From a virus: a DNA stretch of 64,000 bases. Where the stretch lies: the IMG/VR virus record IMGVR_UViG_2687453534_000001. One strand, 5' to 3'. Positions 22,584-30,226 of this stretch are shown piece after piece. The number at the start of each line of letters is the position of its first letter. Position 1 is the stretch's first letter. A model generated the notes under the pieces. It was not told the origin of the DNA. It searched no databases and was given only the letters and a program-made list of their open reading frames with translations. The position numbers were made by a program, and so were the translations under genes.

Positions 22584-24008
22584 TTGAATCCATCAGTGCT
22601 GATCAATGGGGTCGAGTTCGTACCGTCCGACACGCCGACGCAATCGCATATCGGCGTCGCGATCACGACGCGGAACCGCCCCGAAGTCCTCGCCACAACA
22701 CTTGAGCATGTCCGGCGTTTTACGCCGGGTGCGACGGTGGTTGTCGTTGACGACGCATCCACGCCGCCAGGGGTAGGCATCACCTACCGATTCCCCGAGC
22801 GTGCCGGGGTCGCCGCGGCCAAGAATAAGTGCATAGAGCTGCTGGTCGACGCTGGCTGTACTGAGCTGTTCCTTCTCGATGATGACTGCTACCCGGTCAA
22901 AGAGGGCTGGACCGATCTGTATATCGACAACCCAGAGCCTCACCTGTGCTATCTGTTCAAGACGCTGGACGCGAACGGCAATCCGGTGGGCACTCCTGAG
23001 ACCATCTATGAAGATGGTCGGACGCGCGCGTTCAGTCACCCCATGGGATGCCTGATCTACATGAATCACAGCGTGATTGAGCGCTGCGGCGGCATGCGGA
23101 CCATCTTCGGTGTGTGGGGCCATGAGCACGTCGAGTACAGCCTTCGTGTCAACAACACCGGCTTGACCACCAACGCGTTTCAAGATGCCACGGGCTCGGC
23201 TGAGTTCATCTACTCAATGGATGAGCACTGGCACAAGCATCCCGAATTCAAGCGCAGTGTGAGCGATCGTGAGCGCCAGACGCAGATCGAGCGCAACGAT
23301 CATCTGCTGGCCGAGCTGCGCGAGACAACGCACGGGTTCGTCCCATACCGTCAACTGGGCAATGAAGTCATCACCACCATGTTGACGAAAGTGGTTGATC
23401 CACAGCGTAAGAACGCTTCCAAGTTGGTGTCAGCCGACTTTCAGGCCTGGCGCAAGTCGATCAGAGGTGCGAAGTCGATCATTCTGGCCGACGAACCCTA
23501 TGAGCACGACGGAGGCGCCGGGGCATCTGTGGAGTCGGGTCTGAATCCATACCTCCAGCGCTGGATAGTCTGCTATCGCTATCTGCGCGACCACGAGAGC
23601 GCGTGGGTATGGATGACCGATGGCACCGACGTCGAGATGTTGCGCGAGCCCTGGGGCTTGATGCGTGAGGGCGCGCTGTACGTCGGGTATGAGCCGACCG
23701 TCCTGGACATCCCCTGGATGCGCCAGAACCATCCGCCGTACCAACAGTGGATAGCGGAGAACGGCGGTGCTCAACTGCTCAACGCGGGCGTCGTAGGCGG
23801 CGATCACGCGACGCTGCTGGACTTCACAGCGGGCATGGTGCGCGAGATCTTCCGTGTGGGCCCAAGCAAGGTCAAGGGCGACATGGCGGCATTCAATTAC
23901 GTTGCACGGTCGCCCAAGTGGCGCGAGCGGATCGTTTGGGGCAGTCAATGGCTCACCACATTCAAGGCCAACGAACGCAACGACTGGAGCGTCTGGAAGC
24001 ACAAATGA
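22584..24008 (+). CDS. Family-2 glycosyltransferase (GT-A) with a C-terminal extension
   Basis: TTG start with GGAGG RBS. VVVVDDAS ... LLDDDC (DXD). Confidence 0.75.
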   Translation: MNPSVLINGVEFVPSDTPTQSHIGVAITTRNRPEVLATTLEHVRRFTPGATVVVVDDASTPPGVGITYRFPERAGVAAAKNKCIELLVDAGCTELFLLDDDCYPVKEGWTDLYIDNPEPHLCYLFKTLDANGNPVGTPETIYEDGRTRAFSHPMGCLIYMNHSVIERCGGMRTIFGVWGHEHVEYSLRVNNTGLTTNAFQDATGSAEFIYSMDEHWHKHPEFKRSVSDRERQTQIERNDHLLAELRETTHGFVPYRQLGNEVITTMLTKVVDPQRKNASKLVSADFQAWRKSIRGAKSIILADEPYEHDGGAGASVESGLNPYLQRWIVCYRYLRDHESAWVWMTDGTDVEMLREPWGLMREGALYVGYEPTVLDIPWMRQNHPPYQQWIAENGGAQLLNAGVVGGDHATLLDFTAGMVREIFRVGPSKVKGDMAAFNYVARSPKWRERIVWGSQWLTTFKANERNDWSVWKHK

Positions 24009-24682
24009 TGACACTCGATGAGATCGCACAGAAGCACGGCACTGACAAGTCATCGCTGAATCACAACTACACGGCGATCTATGAGCCACTACTAGAACCG
24101 CTGCGCGACAAGCCGATAACACTGCTGGAGCTAGGCTGGGGTGGTCACGAGGACCCCGACAGCGGCGGTAACAGCGCGCGCACATGGGCCGAGTACTTCA
24201 CCCATCCTGGCGCCGAGATCATCGTGGTCGAGCTGGAGTCCAAAAACGTAAGACCAGAAGACGACGAGCGAATCACCCTCTGGCAGGGCTCGCAGGACGA
24301 TCAGGCGATGATCGATCAGATCGCAGCGGTGTACGGCCCGTTCGATGTGATCATTGATGACGCAAGTCATCTGTCGTCCAAGACGATTCGCTCATTCGAG
24401 CTGCTGTTTCGTCATGTGACACCAGGCGGCATCTACGCCGTGGAGGACACGCACGCGTCCTACCACGAGCACTACTACGGGTCGATGGAAGCCAACGAGG
24501 ACCCCGAGAAGCGCAGACGTGATGGTGAGTTCACCATGATGCAGTTCTTTCAGCGGTTGACCGATGAGGTCAACTACCGCGGGCGCACAGAGCTTGACCT
24601 GTTCCCCTCGCGATACGCCTGGAACGTGCCCGTTGAGTCCATCGCGTTCTACTTCAACATGCTGGTTGCGAAGCGGCGATGA
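24005..24682 (+). CDS. Class I SAM-dependent (O-)methyltransferase
   Basis: ELGWGGHED ... EIIVVE ... DVIIDDASH ... GGIYAVED. ATGATG overlap. Confidence 0.7.
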   Translation: MMTLDEIAQKHGTDKSSLNHNYTAIYEPLLEPLRDKPITLLELGWGGHEDPDSGGNSARTWAEYFTHPGAEIIVVELESKNVRPEDDERITLWQGSQDDQAMIDQIAAVYGPFDVIIDDASHLSSKTIRSFELLFRHVTPGGIYAVEDTHASYHEHYYGSMEANEDPEKRRRDGEFTMMQFFQRLTDEVNYRGRTELDLFPSRYAWNVPVESIAFYFNMLVAKRR

Positions 24683-25392
24683 ACATCCAAATTGGGGTTG
24701 TCGCGCATCAGGATCGAATGCTTCAGGCCGAGGACATGATCGGGGCTGTTGACGCGAACGTGGTCGCGTATGACGACGGCGATCTCGGTTGCGAGGGTAA
24801 CCATCGTCGTGTGTGGTCGATGCTGACCGCGTATGACTCTGACTGGAGTGTCGTACTCGAAGACGACGCGCAGCCCGTCGAAGGCTTTCGCGCACAACTG
24901 GAATCAGCTTTGGCGGTTGCGCCTACACCGATCGTCTCGCTGTATCTGGGCAAGGGGAGACCCGAGTTCGCACAGACCAGCATCCGCACGATCGCTCGCG
25001 CGCTGTCACCAGAGACGCCGGCGGCGCCATGCTGGTTCACTGGCAACGTACTTCTGCACGCAGTGGGTGTAGCCATCCGCACACCGCTGATACGCGGCAT
25101 GCTAGACCATCTAGCCCAGCCGCCCGCGGTTTTCATGGCACAGGACCATGCGATAGAGCACTGGGCAAACACAGCAGGGCACCGCATCGGATACACCTGG
25201 CCAAGCCTGGTGAATCATGCTGACACACCAACGGTTATCGATGAACACCCCGATGGCATACCCCGCGGACCTCGCATAGTGGAGGGGGCCATAGTGGTCA
25301 CCCCACGTAGGGGGTGGCGGGTTGGAACACGCGAGCACTGGTCGAGCGATGAGATCAAGCTGACATTGAGGAGACCTCATGTACATCGCTGA
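24679..25392 (+). CDS. Putative glycosyltransferase (GT25-like)
   Basis: WSVVLEDDAQPVEGFRAQL resembles the GT25 EDD motif. 237 aa. Confidence 0.5.
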   Translation: MNIQIGVVAHQDRMLQAEDMIGAVDANVVAYDDGDLGCEGNHRRVWSMLTAYDSDWSVVLEDDAQPVEGFRAQLESALAVAPTPIVSLYLGKGRPEFAQTSIRTIARALSPETPAAPCWFTGNVLLHAVGVAIRTPLIRGMLDHLAQPPAVFMAQDHAIEHWANTAGHRIGYTWPSLVNHADTPTVIDEHPDGIPRGPRIVEGAIVVTPRRGWRVGTREHWSSDEIKLTLRRPHVHR

Positions 25393-25678
25393 CCCGTATC
25401 CCTCTGCTCATGGTGGATCATCTGATTTCGCAGGTGGTAACAGGCAGAGGGTGCACATCACCGCTGACTACACAGTGCTGGTCGATGGCGTGCAGGTGCC
25501 GGGGTTCATTGCCGAGGATGGGGTGACGGTACACCGAGGTAGTACCGATACCAATACGCTCAACACCTTGACCCTCACACTCCTAGTCTCAGACATAGAG
25601 ATCGATGACGTTGTAGTTGAGGACGTTGCGGTGCTTGAACAGGTCACCGAAGACATCAACGACACATCGCAGGACTGA
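25379..25678 (+). CDS. Hypothetical protein
   Basis: GAGGAG RBS. 99 aa. Acidic C-terminus. Confidence 0.5.
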   Translation: MYIADPYPSAHGGSSDFAGGNRQRVHITADYTVLVDGVQVPGFIAEDGVTVHRGSTDTNTLNTLTLTLLVSDIEIDDVVVEDVAVLEQVTEDINDTSQD

Positions 25679-25679
25679 G

Positions 25680-25988
25680 ATGGTGTGGGCCGGTGACGGT
25701 CGAGGCACTGGGACCAACGTTCCGGCGTCCGTACGCCGCGGTGTGCGCATCAGAGACAACGACGAGTGCCAGTTGCGCTACGACGGATGCACGGGCGTCT
25801 ACGAAGAGCTGGACCACAAAGACGGTGTGACCCAACGGGGTATCGACAGGCGTATGACCCTCACCGTGGATGAACTCCAATGCGCGTGCAGGCCATGCCA
25901 CAAGAAGAAGACCGCCAAGCAAGCGGCTCAAGGTCGTTCCCGCAAGCGATACCGGGACCCAGAACCACACCCAGGACGCAACCGATAG
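25680..25988 (+). CDS. HNH endonuclease
   Basis: ECQLRYDGC...HKDG...CACRPCHKKKT. Lies upstream of the terminase region. Confidence 0.8.
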   Translation: MVWAGDGRGTGTNVPASVRRGVRIRDNDECQLRYDGCTGVYEELDHKDGVTQRGIDRRMTLTVDELQCACRPCHKKKTAKQAAQGRSRKRYRDPEPHPGRNR

Positions 25989-26140
25989 CCCACGCGGGCG
26001 TACAGGGGCTGGGGAGGGGAGCCCCCTGGGGCCCCGGAAATCCCCGGTTGGCATAGGCGCTAAGGCTCCGTACGGGTCTGGCCTTTTTCGGATAAGTCGG
26101 AGCCCCAGGTTCAATCCCGACCGATGCGACGTTTTCAGGT

Positions 26141-26602
26141 CTAGCCGATTGGGACGGCAGAGCATAGTTTCCACTGCGAGTCCTGTTTTTGCATTTCTAC
26201 AACGACAGGATCAGCGGGTACCTTTTCGAATTCACGGGTTGGTTGACCGATTGCGATGGCGCGGTCGCCGTTCGCAACGACCCTGGCTGGGACGAAGAAC
26301 AGCTTGCCGAGTGTTTTGGCTTGGTCGGTGCCTTGCTTGACTTCATCCATGCTTAGCCCGTTGTTTGCCGCGAATCCGCAGAGCATGGTCTGTAGCTTGG
26401 CTGTATCGCCCGCCGTGTAGGTTTCTAAAATCGAATTGATTGCAGTCTCAATCGTTTTAGTCTGAGTATCGTTTTGACCGGTTGCTGGTGCGGGACTTGT
26501 CTGGCCGTGGTCGGAGGCTAAATAGAAACCTCCGGCAGTGATCGCGGCTGCAAGCAGTGCTGTGGCAGCGTGGGTTCCGAGTGTTTTGGCTGACGGTTTC
26601 AC
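26141..26602 (-). CDS. Secreted/membrane-anchored protein (moron gene 3 of 3)
   Basis: N-terminal signal/TM MKPSAKTLGTHAATALLAAAITAGG. GTG start overlapping the upstream stop. Low local GC. Confidence 0.6.
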   Translation of the reverse strand: MKPSAKTLGTHAATALLAAAITAGGFYLASDHGQTSPAPATGQNDTQTKTIETAINSILETYTAGDTAKLQTMLCGFAANNGLSMDEVKQGTDQAKTLGKLFFVPARVVANGDRAIAIGQPTREFEKVPADPVVVEMQKQDSQWKLCSAVPIG

Positions 26603-26793
26603 TTGGTCCCTCTTCTGGGCGCGCGTAGACGAATAAATACGACTGGCCAGATAATGAATACAGCGACGGCCAGTATGGCGACCCCGCCAGCATACGAAAC
26701 CTGTGCCACTGCGGTGGCAGAAGCCAGAAGCGCAACACCAATGAGCACAATATAATACTTATTTAGCTCAGCTATCCGTTCGTGAATTTTCAT
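26599..26793 (-). CDS. Small two-TM membrane protein (moron gene 2 of 3)
   Basis: AAGGTG RBS. Low-GC codons. VLIGVALLASATAVA...ILAVAVFIIWPVVFI. Confidence 0.55.
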   Translation of the reverse strand: MKIHERIAELNKYYIVLIGVALLASATAVAQVSYAGGVAILAVAVFIIWPVVFIRLRAPRRGTK

Positions 26794-26805
26794 TTACGGT
26801 GCACC

Positions 26806-27798
26806 TTAAACTATCGCCGCAGTGAGCTTGTACCCATTGAGGACAAGTTGAATATGCTTTCCTGCGGGCATTTGGAAATCTGGCCAAATTACATCGAAGA
26901 TGATAGTGCATACGACAGCCGCGCCTCCCGCTGCGATGAACTGACCGACTGGGGTGGACTCTGCGGCCAGGAGCGCGCCGAGCCCGGCGCAGGACGTGAT
27001 AAATCCTGCTTTTGGCACGTCGGTGGCCATATTGGTGAGTTTCTTACTCTGCTCCTCAGTAAGATCAAGAGTGGCACGAGGTGCCCACTTGCACGCTCCT
27101 GTCACCGGGTCTTGAGGCCCCATGGCGCACCCTTTTTGAAGATCGACCGGCCGCTTGTCGTCCGGCCACTGATTTTGATCGGGTGTAGACGGTTGGGTTG
27201 GCTGCGGTGTCGGCGCCTGGGTAGGCGCTTGAGGTTGCTGCCCTTGCTGGGGTTGTTGCGGCGCTTGAAAATCCGGGTTGGGCTTTCCGGGGCCTTGGGT
27301 GTATCCGGGCGCTGTCGAGTAGTTGGGTGGTTGCGTACCGTGTGCCGGCTGGTCCCATCCCTGTTGCGGCTGCTGCTGACCGCCGGACTGGCCGCCTTGC
27401 TGGGGTGCTCCCTGTGCGCCGGTTTGGTAGATCGAGATGCCGTTGTCCTGATTCATCGGTGGCTGATTACCGCCCTGATATTGGGGCTGCTGTCCTGGCA
27501 TTTCAGGTGGCCTGAATTGGGAACCTCCGCCGTCTGTCATCCCACCTGTCGGCCCAGGCGGGCCGGACGGGTCGGCACCCACAGTCGCCATGGTGGAGAA
27601 ACCACTGCCTGGCGTGGTGTTGTCGCCCACCACCTGCACCGCGCCGATGACCACTGCTGCGGTAGCTATCACGGCCAACGACTTTCGAAGCGTCGGTGAT
27701 GTCGTTCGTGGCTCGGGCTGCGGCTTGATTGGGGATTGCAGCACTCGGCACCAGTGCGTCTCACGCGGATTGCTGTGATCTTGAATTTCGGGCTGCAT
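26806..27798 (-). CDS. Membrane protein with a long P/Q/G-rich low-complexity region and a Cys-containing C-terminal domain (moron gene 1 of 3)
   Basis: TM LAVIATAAVVIGAVQVV, then about 170 aa of PQG repeats, then a domain with four Cys. Confidence 0.6.
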   Translation of the reverse strand: MQPEIQDHSNPRETHWCRVLQSPIKPQPEPRTTSPTLRKSLAVIATAAVVIGAVQVVGDNTTPGSGFSTMATVGADPSGPPGPTGGMTDGGGSQFRPPEMPGQQPQYQGGNQPPMNQDNGISIYQTGAQGAPQQGGQSGGQQQPQQGWDQPAHGTQPPNYSTAPGYTQGPGKPNPDFQAPQQPQQGQQPQAPTQAPTPQPTQPSTPDQNQWPDDKRPVDLQKGCAMGPQDPVTGACKWAPRATLDLTEEQSKKLTNMATDVPKAGFITSCAGLGALLAAESTPVGQFIAAGGAAVVCTIIFDVIWPDFQMPAGKHIQLVLNGYKLTAAIV

Positions 27799-28003
27799 GG
27801 GGACAACTTAGACGATTTCGAGCTGCGCTGGTAGTGGACGGCGTCAACTCTTTTAAAAGTTTGCGACTGGTTTACCGGCGACCTACTTGAAGGTAGCCGT
27901 TGTCAGTGGTGACCCCTTTGAGCTCCCGTCGGAATGTTCAGGCGTTCTACGCAGCCAGTAAACGGCCAATCAGGCGCGCGCAACGCGCACAAAGGAGCAC
28001 ATC

Positions 28004-28483
28004 ATGGCCGGAGTAGGCCCTACCCCGAAAGACCCAAGTCGGCGAGCAAGACGCAATGCAGGGCCTACGCCGCTGCGCATCATCCCGGCGACTCCCGTCG
28101 AGCAGCCTCCGCTACCGCAGTTCGACCTTGAGGTCAGCGTTGACGGTCAGATCGTCGCCCAACAGTTCAAGTGGCCCGCGCGGACAGTTGAGTGGTGGCA
28201 GATGTGGAAGGACTCGCCGCTGTCGAGCGAGTTTACTTCCACCGACTGGTCAGAACTGCTCGATACTGCTGTGCTGCACGCCCGGTACTGGAGCGGCGAC
28301 GTGAAAGTCGCCGCCGAATTGCGTTTGCGCGTTGCCAAATTCGGCGCGACTCCGGAAGATCGCGCCCGCTTGCGCATTCAGTTCGCCGCAGCCAATGAGG
28401 CGGACAAGAAGGCCAACGAGCCGGGCGCCAAGCCAAATGGCGGGTCCAAAGGGCGGTACGGGCCGCTGGGGTCGACGGGTTAG
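28004..28483 (+). CDS. terS: Terminase small subunit
   Basis: AAAGGAG RBS. Basic N-terminus. Directly precedes TerL. Confidence 0.6.
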   Translation: MAGVGPTPKDPSRRARRNAGPTPLRIIPATPVEQPPLPQFDLEVSVDGQIVAQQFKWPARTVEWWQMWKDSPLSSEFTSTDWSELLDTAVLHARYWSGDVKVAAELRLRVAKFGATPEDRARLRIQFAAANEADKKANEPGAKPNGGSKGRYGPLGSTG

Positions 28484-30226
28484 TTGCCCTGGAAGCCAAC
28501 GGTTCCGGGTGAGCGTCCCACGCTCGGCTGGGCCGTACTCGACTGGATAACCGAGTACCTCCAAGTCGTTGACGGCCCCAGCCTGGGTGAGCCGCTGATC
28601 TTCACGCCGGAACAGGCGCATTTCGTCGCGCGGCTCTACGAAGTGGACCCGCTGTTCAAGCCTGGCACCGCGATCGTCGGCCGAGCGATGAACAACGGCC
28701 GGCTGATCCGCCGTGCGGTGCTCTCCCGGCCCAAGGGCTGGGGCAAGTCGCCGCTGGTGGCGGCGCTGTGCATCGTCGAGGCGATCGGCGATGTGGTCAT
28801 GGACGGCTGGGATGCTGATGGCCAACCCGTAGGCCGCCCCTGGGTCGATCTCGGCATCAAGCCGAAGGTCCAGATCATCGCCGTCTCAGAGGATCAGACC
28901 GCCAATACCTGGGACCCATGCCTGGACATGGTGCGCAGCAGCGATCGGCTGCTCGATGACTACGACGTTGACCCGATGGAAACGTTCATCACGGTTCCGC
29001 GCGGACGAATTGAGGCCGTCACGTCGGCGGGTGTCAGCCGTGAAGGTTTCCGACCCGTCTTCACCGCAATGGATCAGACCGAGAGCTGGACCGAGACCAA
29101 TGGCGGCCTGCGGCTCGCTGGGACCATCCGTCGCAACCTCGGCAAGGTCAACGGCTGCTCGGTCGAGACGCCGAACGCTTTCCTACCCGGTGAGAACACC
29201 GTCGCCGAGCGTTCGTGGAAGACGTATCAGGCGCAGCTTATTCGTGCGGAGCGCCCACAGGGTGAGGGCCGGGTGCCTGGCGGGCTCTACTACGATCACC
29301 GCGAAGCACCACCGGAAACCGACCCATCCGACTACGACTCGCTGCGCGAGGGGCTGCGCGTGTCGTACGGCGAGTCAGCCGATGACAACGGCGGATGGGT
29401 CAACCTTGATCGCATCATCCAAGAGTATTGGGATGACGACACCGATCCGCAGGACGCGCGCCGGTACTACCTGAACCAGATCACCCACGCGTCGGACCAG
29501 TGGATCAGTCAGATCGAGTGGAGCGCGATTCGCGTTGGTGCCGAGGACAAGCCAGACCCGAACCCCATCAAGCCGGGTGATTTCATCGCGGTTGGGTTCG
29601 ACGGCTCACGCGGCCGTCAGCGTGGAAAGGCTGACGCCACGGCGCTGATCGGGTGCCGCATCCATGACGGCCGACTGTTCACCATCGGCATTTGGCAGGC
29701 CGAGAAACACGAAAAGAACTGGGTACCTCCGGTTCACGAGGTGGATGCCGCGGTACGCAAGACGTTCGCAGACTTCCGGGTCATCGCGTTCAACGCCGAC
29801 CCAACCGGCTGGACTGAGCAAGTCGTGGCCTGGGAAAAGGACTTCGGGCGACGGCTCAAGGTCAAGTGCTCCGTCAAGAATCCGATGATGGCCTGGCCAA
29901 AGGGTAAGGGCATCAACGTAGTCGAGCACATCGAGATTTTCCGTCACGCCGTCGTCACGTCGGGTCAGGATGCTGGCGCGGAAGACTCCGTCATCACGAT
30001 CAGCCACAGCGGCGATCTCGCGCTGACACAGCACATCCTCAACGCACGAAAGCGCGCCGCCAGCCGCGGCTACCTGATCCACAAGGCATATCCAGAGTCC
30101 CCCAACAAAATTGACGCCGCGTACGCGGCGGTCATGGCGTACAAGGGGCGGCTCGACTGCTACGCCCAGGGTATCGGCGTACGCGTCAACTCATCTAGCC
30201 AGGGAAGGATGGTAGTGCTCGGATGA
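28484..30226 (+). CDS. terL: Terminase large subunit
   Basis: TTG start. ATPase motif PKGWGKSPLVAALCIVEA. 580 aa. Confidence 0.9.
   Translation: MPWKPTVPGERPTLGWAVLDWITEYLQVVDGPSLGEPLIFTPEQAHFVARLYEVDPLFKPGTAIVGRAMNNGRLIRRAVLSRPKGWGKSPLVAALCIVEAIGDVVMDGWDADGQPVGRPWVDLGIKPKVQIIAVSEDQTANTWDPCLDMVRSSDRLLDDYDVDPMETFITVPRGRIEAVTSAGVSREGFRPVFTAMDQTESWTETNGGLRLAGTIRRNLGKVNGCSVETPNAFLPGENTVAERSWKTYQAQLIRAERPQGEGRVPGGLYYDHREAPPETDPSDYDSLREGLRVSYGESADDNGGWVNLDRIIQEYWDDDTDPQDARRYYLNQITHASDQWISQIEWSAIRVGAEDKPDPNPIKPGDFIAVGFDGSRGRQRGKADATALIGCRIHDGRLFTIGIWQAEKHEKNWVPPVHEVDAAVRKTFADFRVIAFNADPTGWTEQVVAWEKDFGRRLKVKCSVKNPMMAWPKGKGINVVEHIEIFRHAVVTSGQDAGAEDSVITISHSGDLALTQHILNARKRAASRGYLIHKAYPESPNKIDAAYAAVMAYKGRLDCYAQGIGVRVNSSSQGRMVVLG

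Follow-up and report, generated by a model that had tools for sequence, protein, structure and literature searches.

The genes gp50, gp49 and gp48 of Mycobacterium phage McProf, a prophage of M. chelonae, form an inserted unit that we interpret, with moderate confidence and by sequence comparison, as a lysogenically expressed polymorphic effector-immunity cassette of non-ESX type. The unit was analysed in a stretch of 64,000 nucleotides (the window), which was 100% identical to the McProf record BK061309.1; a position in this record plus 942 gives the position in the window. The preliminary description had placed three minus-strand open reading frames between an HNH gene and TerS, and these were found there and correspond to the annotated McProf gp48, gp49 and gp50. 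The features of the locus are as follows.

26141-26602, minus strand: gp48, 153 aa, GTG start
26599-26793, minus strand: gp49, 64 aa
26806-27798, minus strand: gp50, 330 aa, with ATG at 27798 (gene 50 of BK061309.1 is annotated with a shorter start)
26091..27974, no strand: inserted block of 1,884 bp, instead of which the closest MabR prophages carry 82 bp
27799..28003, no strand: divergent intergenic region between gp50 and TerS, taken from the coordinates

The HNH gene ends at 25988 and TerS starts at 28004. The region 25300-28600 of the window was compared by blastn with prophiFSAT01-1 and prophiFVLQ01-1, two prophages in which TerS comes directly after HNH. Homology broke at 26090 and restarted at 27975, so that the right-hand 29 bp of the gp50-TerS intergenic region (27975-28003) are common to the sister phages. 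The inserted block had a GC content of 0.573 versus 0.604 for the window, and the lowest local values, 0.49-0.51, were found at 26600-27050, where the window stands at about 0.60. The GC3 was 0.48 in gp49, 0.565 in gp48, 0.60 in the C part of gp50 and 0.64 in its N part, all below the 0.70-0.78 of HNH, TerS, TerL and portal. The genes gp48-50 are a real, horizontally acquired insert in McProf: the 1,884 bp against 82 bp in the sister prophages and the atypical codon composition bear out the acquisition that had been proposed, together with the sharp drop in GC. The upstream region of its own that the cassette was said to have, facing TerS, is the intergenic stretch listed above. The claim of overlapping starts and stops (GTGA) held for the gp49/gp48 junction, where the start of gp48 lies over the stop of gp49, and failed for gp50 and gp49, which are separated by 12 nt. 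The side of the terminase is a common position for morons, used also in prophiT46-2, prophiT48-1 and the locus L022. A tRNA scan of the window found none.

The reading frames are more than chance ones, as the preliminary description had assumed, since the same three-gene unit was present in an M. abscessus prophage (L030) and its expression has been published. In L030 the whole trio is inherited together, with protein identities of 62/45/51% for gp50, gp49 and gp48 and with similar lengths. By RNA-seq, gp48-50 were "moderately" expressed in the McProf lysogen and their function was left undetermined (Cushman et al. 2021, PMC8191103), so the lysogenic expression that had been predicted was already on record. 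A candidate leaderless promoter was located next to gp50.

27805..27810, minus strand: -10-like hexamer TAAGTT, 6 nt upstream of the gp50 ATG (27798)

The assignment of TAAGTT as a promoter is based on the known architecture of mycobacterial leaderless promoters and is that of a candidate. The same layout, TANNNT-g(t)tcccc-ATG, was also seen upstream of the gp50 homologues in L030 (TACTGT) and prophi79-1 (TACCAT). Scans for terminators and promoter consensus sequences gave matches no commoner than in shuffled sequence. The 330-aa start of gp50 used in the preliminary description (ATG at 27798) is better supported than the 312-aa start of the database.

The protein gp50 can be divided into three regions. 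Its constant part, the head, covers residues ~35-211 with the Arg-Arg/Arg-Lys motif, the membrane helix and the P/Q/G-rich segment, and the third region is the tail.

27619..27798, minus strand: gp50 aa 1-60, predicted cytoplasmic tail with WCRxLQ, Arg-Lys position and membrane helix/signal-anchor
27166..27618, minus strand: gp50 aa 61-211, conserved P/Q/G-rich constant module
26809..27165, minus strand: gp50 aa 212-330, variable C-terminal module

Hydropathy showed one strong N-terminal membrane helix in gp50 (aa ~40-58, with the peak at aa 35-60), two helices in gp49 and one N-terminal helix in gp48. The WCRxLQ motif is kept in L002, L004, L009, L030, L034 and L072. An Arg-Arg pair precedes the hydrophobic helix in 75 of the 111 N-terminal family members, the exceptions being mostly truncated gene calls; McProf gp50 has Arg-Lys where most relatives have Arg-Arg, and some members carry a tail of about 35 aa before the motif. 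Residues 61-215 contain 21% Q, 19% P and 17% G. The earlier view of gp50 as a 330-aa transmembrane protein with a Cys-containing C-terminus was right, whereas the P/Q/G-rich part taken for low complexity is a highly conserved module, with the consensus PGSGFS..ATVGADP.GPPGPTGGMTDGGGSQF..P.YQGGN..GISIY..QPAHGTQPPNY..YTQGPGKPNPD.QAPQQ. This module corresponds to PHROGs 30921 and 35557, both of unknown function, and gave no match in Pfam or NCBIfam.

The constant module defines a family in which one head is joined to many tails. Five prophage proteins shared about 45% identity overall, concentrated at aa ~35-211 with many invariant columns and followed by complete divergence. Likewise, 23 Mycobacteroides genome loci matched only aa ~34-180 of gp50, at 49-71% identity, with up to 5 loci per genome; in several genomes, members of the family were spread over more than one contig or locus. 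The head was present in 139 of 150 cluster representatives and the gp50 tail in only one, and a full-length match was obtained for 1 of 151. At least 35 distinct C-terminal clusters were counted in the head family, and at least 100 IMG/VR prophage contigs (100 found) carry the head, with the family almost entirely confined to Mycobacteroides. The tails of the relatives that scored above Pfam cutoffs were prokaryotic PLA2, Abhydrolase_8, DUF6973, GH19 and SLT; Zn-metallopeptidase motifs were weaker matches, one prophage pair is annotated as a metallopeptidase plus inhibitor, and a long family member is named "toxin glutamine deamidase domain-containing" by NCBI.

The downstream genes follow the tails. 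Among the family genes listed, each had next to it, -4 to +20 nt downstream and on the same strand, a gene that encodes a membrane protein, lipoprotein or secreted protein, and similar tails had similar downstream genes in all 9 locus pairs (9/9). The exchange can be seen directly between L030 and prophi79-1, which are syntenic at 83-86% and have heads 67% identical, and in which the tail and the two genes after it have been exchanged together, as a block. The exact gp50-gp49-gp48 trio is very rare. An LppU-like lipoprotein is encoded in most family loci and is absent from McProf and L030. Literature searches for the gp50 family found no description, and these putatively exported proteins of the same head and swappable tail are apparently undescribed so far.

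The four Cys of the gp50 tail are invariant. The module further comprises an amphipathic helix, a hairpin of hydrophobic helices whose turn carries an invariant Glu, and a beta-hairpin at its end. The four Cys would fit an oxidising, extracytoplasmic site for this module. Fold and family searches with the tail gave no match, and a word-indexed search of 5.8 billion proteins with the tail alone returned no homologues. A profile built from four tails matched only three Nocardia proteins and nothing in a scan of IMG/VR; the tail is rare. One diverged tail homologue, in L072, surfaced through the head scan and has a multi-TM protein and an Rv0361-family protein encoded downstream. The Nocardia tail homologues have a different head (TM plus Pro-rich), lie upstream of a gene for a multi-TM protein whose Cys-rich domain is exofacial, and adjoin MspA porin genes. 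The tail module moves independently of the McProf-type head, and we count this in favour of an effector-immunity cassette.

According to hydropathy, gp49 is a 64-aa protein with two membrane helices, as had been proposed; its termini are basic and the predicted topology is N-in/C-in. It is a candidate cognate immunity protein. Its homologue in L030 is 45% identical and occupies the same position. Small multi-TM proteins are likewise encoded downstream of relatives with Gly-rich hydrophobic C-termini (L015, L017, L020 and L021) and of L027, whose C-terminus is DUF6973. In a separate comparison, gp49 and the gp50 hairpin aligned with a Smith-Waterman score of 69. When the hydrophobic part was shuffled 5,000 times, the scores were 24 +/- 4.8 with 49 as the highest, and none of 2,468 other ORFs scored above 48. 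Composition-adjusted BLASTP of gp49 against the hairpin detected no similarity, and the L030 pair behaved likewise (z 1.5). A duplication of the hairpin was considered as the origin of gp49; gp49 is devoid of the Cys and Glu that are invariant among the tails, and the score was not used as evidence.

By its score of 44.0 bits with NCBIfam NF051431 (cutoff 37; aa 11-148 of 153 covered) and its N-terminal hydrophobic helix (aa 12-30), gp48 is an Rv0361 family membrane protein. The statement that none of the three proteins had a nameable domain does not stand for gp48, and the lipoprotein-like character attributed to it was discarded because a lipobox Cys is missing, the only Cys being at residues 75 and 147. 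The predicted exofacial domain is probably NTF2-like. A single-sequence AF2 model gave a TM, three helices and four strands in an order that fits NTF2, at low confidence (pLDDT 47), and a profile search of the PDB gave weak matches, to the N-terminal domain of PBP5 (E 0.05) and to ketosteroid isomerases over their full length (E ~1); a relative matched DUF4440 below the cutoff. The L030 homologue is 51% identical, and a homologue search with gp48 returned only itself, as did tblastn against phage records. The protein gp48 is a candidate second immunity or accessory protein. Rv0361-family genes also follow another tail type (L002, L004 and L005), and the Rv0361-like gene of L072 resembles that of L004, for which reason a generic accessory role, or that of a relic, is conceivable for gp48 instead of specific immunity. 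It shares its family with Rv0361 of M. tuberculosis, which is membrane- and surface-located; unlike the role proposed for gp48, this prototype has no known toxin partner or context.

The organisation of the family was compared with that of known polymorphic toxins. Two of the features used by Zhang et al. (2012), a constant N-terminal region joined to unrelated C-termini and the exchange of the C-terminal module together with the adjacent genes, are found in this family as judged by alignment. A third, recognisable effector classes, is seen in the tails of the relatives and gave no match in the tail of gp50 itself. In prophages of M. abscessus and M. chelonae, PEST cassettes encode an ESX-secreted polymorphic toxin, an immunity protein and WXG100, and McProf has one itself, gp96-98 (PMC10654092, PMC9434293, PMC8092301). 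The gp48-50 cassette resembles them in being prophage-borne, lysogenically expressed and restricted to the M. abscessus-chelonae complex, and in the constant N-terminal module, the recombining C-terminal domains and the co-varying downstream genes. In PEST toxins the N-domain is of the WXG/helical, ESX-targeting kind, and one or two WXG100 genes lie alongside; gp50, in contrast, has a signal-anchor and the P/Q/G-rich module, and its neighbours are HNH and TerS, with no WXG100 gene. The PEST cassette lies at attR and gp48-50 beside the terminase. As WXG100 of Pfam gave no match on gp48, gp49 or gp50, membership of PEST was ruled out, there being neither a WXG partner nor a WXG domain, and the absence of WXG signals on gp50 suggests an export route that differs from that of PEST, probably Sec or Tat.

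Sec-exported toxins with lineage-specific N-domains are catalogued together with NTF2-fold and two-TM immunity proteins (Imm-CdiI), NTF2-fold proteins being a recognised immunity class, and they include the Neisseria MafB (MAFB-N), with the MafA lipoprotein and MafI immunity (PMC3482391). MafB and gp50 share a signal peptide, a genus-restricted constant domain, a polymorphic C-terminus and a downstream immunity gene, here a candidate one. In both, a lipoprotein gene travels with most loci, MafA there and the LppU-like one here, McProf being without it. They differ in that there is no sequence relationship (DUF1020/MAFB-N had no match in gp48-50), in that the constant module is here P/Q/G-rich and probably extended instead of globular, and in that the host has a mycolate outer membrane. 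In S. aureus, the T7SS toxin TspA depolarises membranes and is countered by the polytopic membrane immunity protein TsaI (PMC7456083). TspA/TsaI and Imm-CdiI are similar to the present case only in the way they may work, through a hydrophobic helix-rich C-terminus and a small membrane protein encoded directly downstream; the secretion system of TspA is another one, and for the gp50 tail a membrane activity is suggested solely by the hydrophobic hairpin. CpnT/IFT of M. tuberculosis is also alike in its N-terminal envelope part, C-terminal toxin and downstream immunity factor. CpnT depends on ESX systems and EsxE/F, its N-terminal helices are WXG-like and its toxin is an NAD+ glycohydrolase, and nothing of this kind is seen in gp48-50.

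In the effector-immunity mechanism that we propose, gp50 would be made from a probably leaderless mRNA, and its N-terminal Arg-Arg/Arg-Lys and hydrophobic signal-anchor would take it into or through the plasma membrane by Sec or Tat. The P/Q/G-rich module of about 150 aa would display the C-terminal module on the outer face. The constant module is the shared head of a large Mycobacteroides-specific family, and the tails would be interchangeable domains that damage the envelope or the cell. The tail of gp50 may be a disulfide-stapled, hydrophobic-hairpin domain that acts on membranes by pore formation or depolarisation. The proteins gp49 and gp48 would share the compartment of gp50 and shield the lysogen, while cells without the cassette would be harmed.

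A more far-reaching version, which we put forward tentatively and consider somewhat unlikely, is that the gp50 family delivers polymorphic toxins without ESX, as a system that has gone unrecognised and is peculiar to the M. abscessus-chelonae group. The signal-anchor and the extended P/Q/G-rich stalk would carry toxins across the envelope, assisted in most loci by the LppU-like partner. Siblings without the matching immunity genes would be killed by contact or at short range, and prophages like McProf would spread the modules. The gp50 tail would then represent a new fold of toxin that attacks membranes, and the two-helix membrane protein would neutralise it.

Some observations speak against an effector. 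Many tails of the relatives are peptidoglycan or lipid hydrolases that could equally well be housekeeping envelope enzymes, there is no evident route across the mycomembranes of the producer and the target, the LppU-like lipoprotein is missing in McProf, and gp50 has Arg-Lys, not Arg-Arg. It is conceivable, though in our estimation unlikely, that these are non-toxic accessory proteins tethered to the envelope, in which the stalk would anchor enzymes or membrane-active domains in the producer's own cell wall. Such proteins might remodel the wall, convert the surface or interact with a eukaryotic host, and the genes downstream would encode regulators, chaperones or partners. Peptidoglycan hydrolases, lipases and proteases like those of many tails are indeed known also in housekeeping, the prototype Rv0361 is found in M. 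tuberculosis as a membrane/surface protein without toxin context, the long members, with multi-TM N-termini and hydrolases, resemble cell-wall machinery, and MspA porin genes stand beside the Nocardia tail homologues. However, the tails turn over rapidly together with the coupled downstream genes, PLA2 tails and one named glutamine deamidase toxin occur among them, and an accessory, prophage-borne, multi-copy distribution is unusual for housekeeping functions.

The superinfection exclusion or defence function favoured in the preliminary description is retained as a rival, no longer as the lead, and we regard it as quite unlikely. The three proteins would change or guard the envelope and so block the adsorption or injection of heterotypic phages, or trigger a membrane collapse as in abortive infection. 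Lysogenic expression, the membrane association of all three proteins and the terminase-side site common for morons are consistent with it. Mycobacteriophage prophages do express membrane proteins that exclude other phages, such as Butters gp30/gp31, and a role in viral defence is raised even for ESX toxins in the PEST paper. No specific pointer to exclusion was found, and at E <= 0.1 none of the three proteins matched any family of PADLOC-DB, for which reason the assignment as a defence system was rejected. One head with dozens of enzymatic tails exchanged in blocks has no obvious rationale in exclusion and matches the logic of toxin and immunity, and several genomes hold multiple family loci (up to 5). 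The constant head, the swappable tails and the coupled downstream genes, taken together, make a toxin plus immunity more likely than phage exclusion. That the cassette is a decaying or hitch-hiking by-product of recombination, with functionless proteins in McProf, is highly improbable: the RK of gp50 where RR is usual, the absent LppU-like partner gene and the rarity of the exact trio would agree with it, but the ORFs are intact and translationally coupled, the promoter-like element and the start are conserved, the genes are expressed in the lysogen, and L030 keeps all three proteins at 45-62% identity with lengths preserved.

Bacteria of the M. abscessus complex are hard-to-treat pathogens whose prophages are thought to shape strain fitness, and the toxin cassettes described so far in these prophages are only the ESX-dependent ones (PEST). 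If the effector-immunity reading of gp48-50 is true, there would be a second large polymorphic effector family, with about 140 sequence clusters, at least 35 types of tail and a head present on at least 100 prophage contigs. It would be exported by the general machinery and would use the conserved P/Q/G-rich module. McProf would then have two independent toxin-immunity systems, and a possible explanation would be available for a cassette that is expressed in the lysogen and was left without annotation by its discoverers. The matter would be relevant to phage therapy, given that lysogeny could alter the competition between strains. The family would also yield numerous candidates for antibacterial domains that act on the envelope, along with inhibitors of these domains, and would offer a testable model for the presentation of proteins across the mycobacterial envelope.

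The window corresponds to prophage McProf of M. chelonae ATCC 35752 (BK061309.1, 100% identity), and window coordinates are those of that record plus 942. The three minus-strand ORFs that the preliminary description had placed between HNH and terminase are present in both the ORF listing and the BK061309.1 annotation, flanked by gp47 (HNH) and gp51 (TerS), and the three-gene cassette is thus confirmed:

26141-26602, minus strand, gp48, 153 aa, annotated as membrane protein
26599-26793, minus strand, gp49, 64 aa, annotated as membrane protein
26806-27798, minus strand, gp50, 330 aa, annotated as hypothetical protein

The overlap of starts and stops held for gp49/gp48 (GTGA) and not for gp50/gp49, which are separated by 12 nt. 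The proposed drop in GC and codon usage was reproduced, with a local GC of 0.49-0.51 around 26600-27050 and a GC3 of 0.48 in gp49, 0.565 in gp48 and 0.60 and 0.64 in the halves of gp50, against 0.70-0.78 in flanking phage genes. In the comparison with prophiFSAT01-1 and prophiFVLQ01-1, sister MabR prophages in which HNH is followed by TerS across a 216-bp spacer, homology stops at 26090 and restarts at 27975; therefore, 1,884 bp in McProf substitute for 82 bp of the sister prophages, and the gp48-gp50 block is an insert. Its expression in the lysogen, as expected of a moron, was borne out by data already published by Cushman et al. (PMC8191103), which also give a positive answer to the RNA-seq check that had been proposed.

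Some neighbouring elements were also observed. Just past the HNH gene, a hairpin followed by a T-run (26063-26079, plus strand; AGGCTCCGTACGGGTCT GGCCTTTTTC) lies about 11 bp from the left boundary of the insert and is a possible terminator of rightward early transcription and a possible mark of the recombination site; in the terminator scan such sites were no more frequent than in shuffled sequence. The genes gp43-45 (22596-25392: a glycosyltransferase, a methyltransferase and a 237-aa protein), which precede gp46 and the HNH gene and are common to McProf and prophiFVLQ01-1, may form a module that glycosylates the virion or the cell wall. The gene gp54 (31697 onward), annotated [quoted passage not shown], would encode a MuF-like head protein with a toxin-type domain, a third toxin-like element beside gp96-98 and gp50.

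The annotated GTG start of gp50 (312 aa) would split a WCRxLQ motif that is encoded just past ATG 27798 and kept in several relatives. TAAGTT (27810-27805, minus strand) sits 6 nt 5' of this ATG, and the same TANNNT-g(t)tcccc-ATG layout was found 5' of the homologues in the M. abscessus prophage of locus L030 (TACTGT) and in prophi79-1 (TACCAT). Leaderless transcripts are a known mycobacterial promoter architecture, and by analogy the conserved layout and motif favour a 330-aa product from a putative leaderless transcript.

In the hydropathy profile of gp50 a single strong helix stands out near the N-terminus (aa ~40-58), and aa 264-310, towards the C-terminus, form a hydrophobic hairpin; cysteines are at positions 17, 224, 236, 270 and 297. 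Residues 61-215 are 21% Q, 19% P and 17% G. This stretch had been described as low complexity; the alignment of relatives gives instead a long invariant run (PGSGFS..ATVGADP.GPPGPTGGMTDGGGSQF..P.YQGGN..GISIY..QPAHGTQ.P.Y..YTQGPGKPNPD.QAPQQ), so that it is a conserved module, beyond which the aligned proteins diverge completely. We call this constant module (aa ~35-211) the head and the variable C-terminal module (aa 212-330) the tail. A tblastn search of phage records matched the N-terminal half to proteins of several M. abscessus prophages whose C-termini differ from that of gp50, one of these proteins being annotated as a metallopeptidase and followed by a "metalloproteinase inhibitor" gene. 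The search of one genome per species gave 23 loci, only in Mycobacteroides or unnamed Mycobacterium isolates and up to five per genome, all matching gp50 at residues ~34-180 only. Exhaustive HMMER searching of 1.84 billion representatives returned 151 matches; among the best 150 the head is present in 139, and only the M. abscessus representative P0002 has the gp50-type tail too. Tails of the relatives fall into at least 35 groups, and in IMG/VR the head occurs on 100 viral contigs. Most intact members carry RR before the hydrophobic helix (RK in McProf). PHROGs splits the head over two families without known function.

The family shows further variation. In many members (L007, L010, L011, L027, L006) the P/Q/G module and the tail are separated by a second constant segment (aa ~190-250; "..QQC..A..YG(L/I)AEQM.SFI.S..GG.GS.F.QPSRK.GP...C.C"), a possible pre-toxin or processing region that is absent from gp50. 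Long members of ~1,000-1,080 aa (L014 4972-7989, L025 269-3514, L028 4843-8010) consist of a multi-TM N-terminal region, the P/Q/G module and a coiled-coil-like Q-rich region. Some copies end right past the constant module (L016 5989-6435, 148 aa; L024 5977-6630, 217 aa); they look decayed or "head-only" and could act as recombination substrates.

Tails above Pfam cutoffs were prokaryotic phospholipase A2 (L012), Abhydrolase_8 (L019), DUF6973 (L027) and, each at the end of a long member, GH19 (L014) and SLT (L028). Weaker Zn-metallopeptidase signatures were present in L003 and L026, Gly-rich hydrophobic tails in L015, L017, L020 and L021, and one long member is named "toxin glutamine deamidase domain-containing protein" at NCBI. 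Among the family genes listed, every one is followed on its own strand, at a distance of -4 to +20 nt, by a gene whose product is a membrane protein, a lipoprotein or a secreted protein; small multi-TM proteins come after hydrophobic tails, and similar tails went with similar downstream genes in 9 of the 9 similar-tail locus pairs. An LppU/SCO3897-like Cys-rich lipoprotein (motifs IPGQFP ... RRFTVCTETQK) is constant in most family loci (L002 5931-6473, L017 7288-7854, L027 7558-8169 and many others), is absent from McProf and L030, and may partner the constant module in the manner of MafA. It is followed in many loci by a ~265-aa protein (L021 7948-8745, L015 7895-8785, L017 7864-8670, L022 8551-9354 and others) with three or four internal repeats, "RRW(S/T)xxELAVLxDRSLTxxQxAxxLGRSxxAVxxAR", that look like repeated HTH.

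Direct evidence of module swapping is given by L030, whose M. abscessus prophage is syntenic with prophi79-1 (the flanking regions are 83-86% identical). Between the two, the head is kept at 67% identity, and L030 5444-6609, comprising the tail and two genes, gives way in prophi79-1 to another tail together with gp70 and gp69. L030 holds a McProf-type trio with overlapping gene junctions: a 340-aa ORF (305 aa in the database call), a 67-aa and a 157-aa protein, 62%, 45% and 51% identical to gp50, gp49 and gp48.

Homologues of gp50 residues 212-330 were only P0002, a diverged copy in IMG/VR contig L072 and three Nocardia proteins, in which this tail follows a different TM plus Pro-rich head and the gene comes straight after one for an MspA porin. 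In N. terpenica and N. colli (L029 3766-4413, L031 3025-3672) the porin gene is immediately upstream; these loci are orthologous and count as one observation, and the L031 tail gene appears frameshifted. The tail gene is then followed by a multi-TM protein (L029 5440-6414, L031 4686-5288) ending in the same Cys-rich motif as the LppU-like lipoprotein. Four Cys and a Trp are among the invariant residues of the tail, as is a Glu where the hydrophobic hairpin turns. The AF2 model from four sequences (pLDDT 69, pTM 0.57) orders a strand, an amphipathic helix, two long hydrophobic helices and a beta-hairpin. The tail may be a new, membrane-active effector domain.

By hydropathy gp49 has two helices, with basic ends that suggest an N-in/C-in topology, and gp48 one N-terminal helix. 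The proposed lipoprotein-like nature of gp48 is contradicted by its lack of a lipobox. That none of the three proteins has a nameable domain stood for the gp50 head, for which Pfam and NCBIfam have no model, and failed for gp48, which belongs to NCBIfam NF051431, "Rv0361 family membrane protein" (44 bits, cutoff 37). In M. tuberculosis, Rv0361 was found both at the cell surface and in the membrane fraction (PMC2891697). A five-sequence gp48 profile weakly matched NTF2-fold proteins; the single-sequence AF2 model was too poor to use, and the order of secondary structure agrees with an NTF2-like protein. Another tail type is likewise followed by Rv0361-like genes (L002, L004, L005). In L072, a gene of this kind that resembles the L004 one comes downstream of genes for a protein with a hairpin-type tail, a lipoprotein and a multi-TM protein; it could be an "old" immunity gene that was kept, or encode a generic accessory protein. 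For this reason gp49 is the more likely candidate for the cognate immunity protein, and gp48 is ranked second, as a candidate second immunity or accessory protein. It was also seen that the two-helix segment of gp49 (26599-26793) aligns with the gp50 hairpin (aa ~264-310, 26860-27010) with 14/34 identities (LGALLA..T.V.Q..AGG.A....F.IWP) and a Smith-Waterman score of 69 (shuffles 24 ± 5; best among 2,468 other ORFs, 48); composition-corrected BLASTP found no similarity, nor did the homologous L030 pair show it. Helix-packing mimicry, local gene conversion or chance could account for this likeness.

Non-toxic functions tethered to the envelope are an unlikely explanation of gp48-50. Superinfection exclusion or defence, as initially proposed, found nothing specific in its support, and we consider phage defence improbable; that the cassette is a relic is hardly credible. 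PEST1-3, phage-encoded ESX-secreted polymorphic toxins, carry N-domains of the WXG type and are encoded next to WXG100 genes (PMC10654092, PMC9434293, PMC8092301); gp48-50 have neither and were rejected as members, and the PEST-type cassette of McProf is a separate one at attR. NTF2-fold and two-TM immunity proteins have been catalogued (PMC3482391). In the literature searched we found no description of a family of gp50-type head proteins. With its constant head, variable tails and swapping of tail plus neighbour, the family agrees in architecture with polymorphic toxin systems as defined by comparative criteria. A parallel is offered by Sec-exported toxins whose constant N-domains are lineage-specific, for example MafB, which goes with the MafA lipoprotein. 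On this comparative basis, we consider it somewhat more probable than the opposite that gp48-50 constitute a non-ESX polymorphic effector-immunity cassette whose tail would be a new, probably membrane-active domain.
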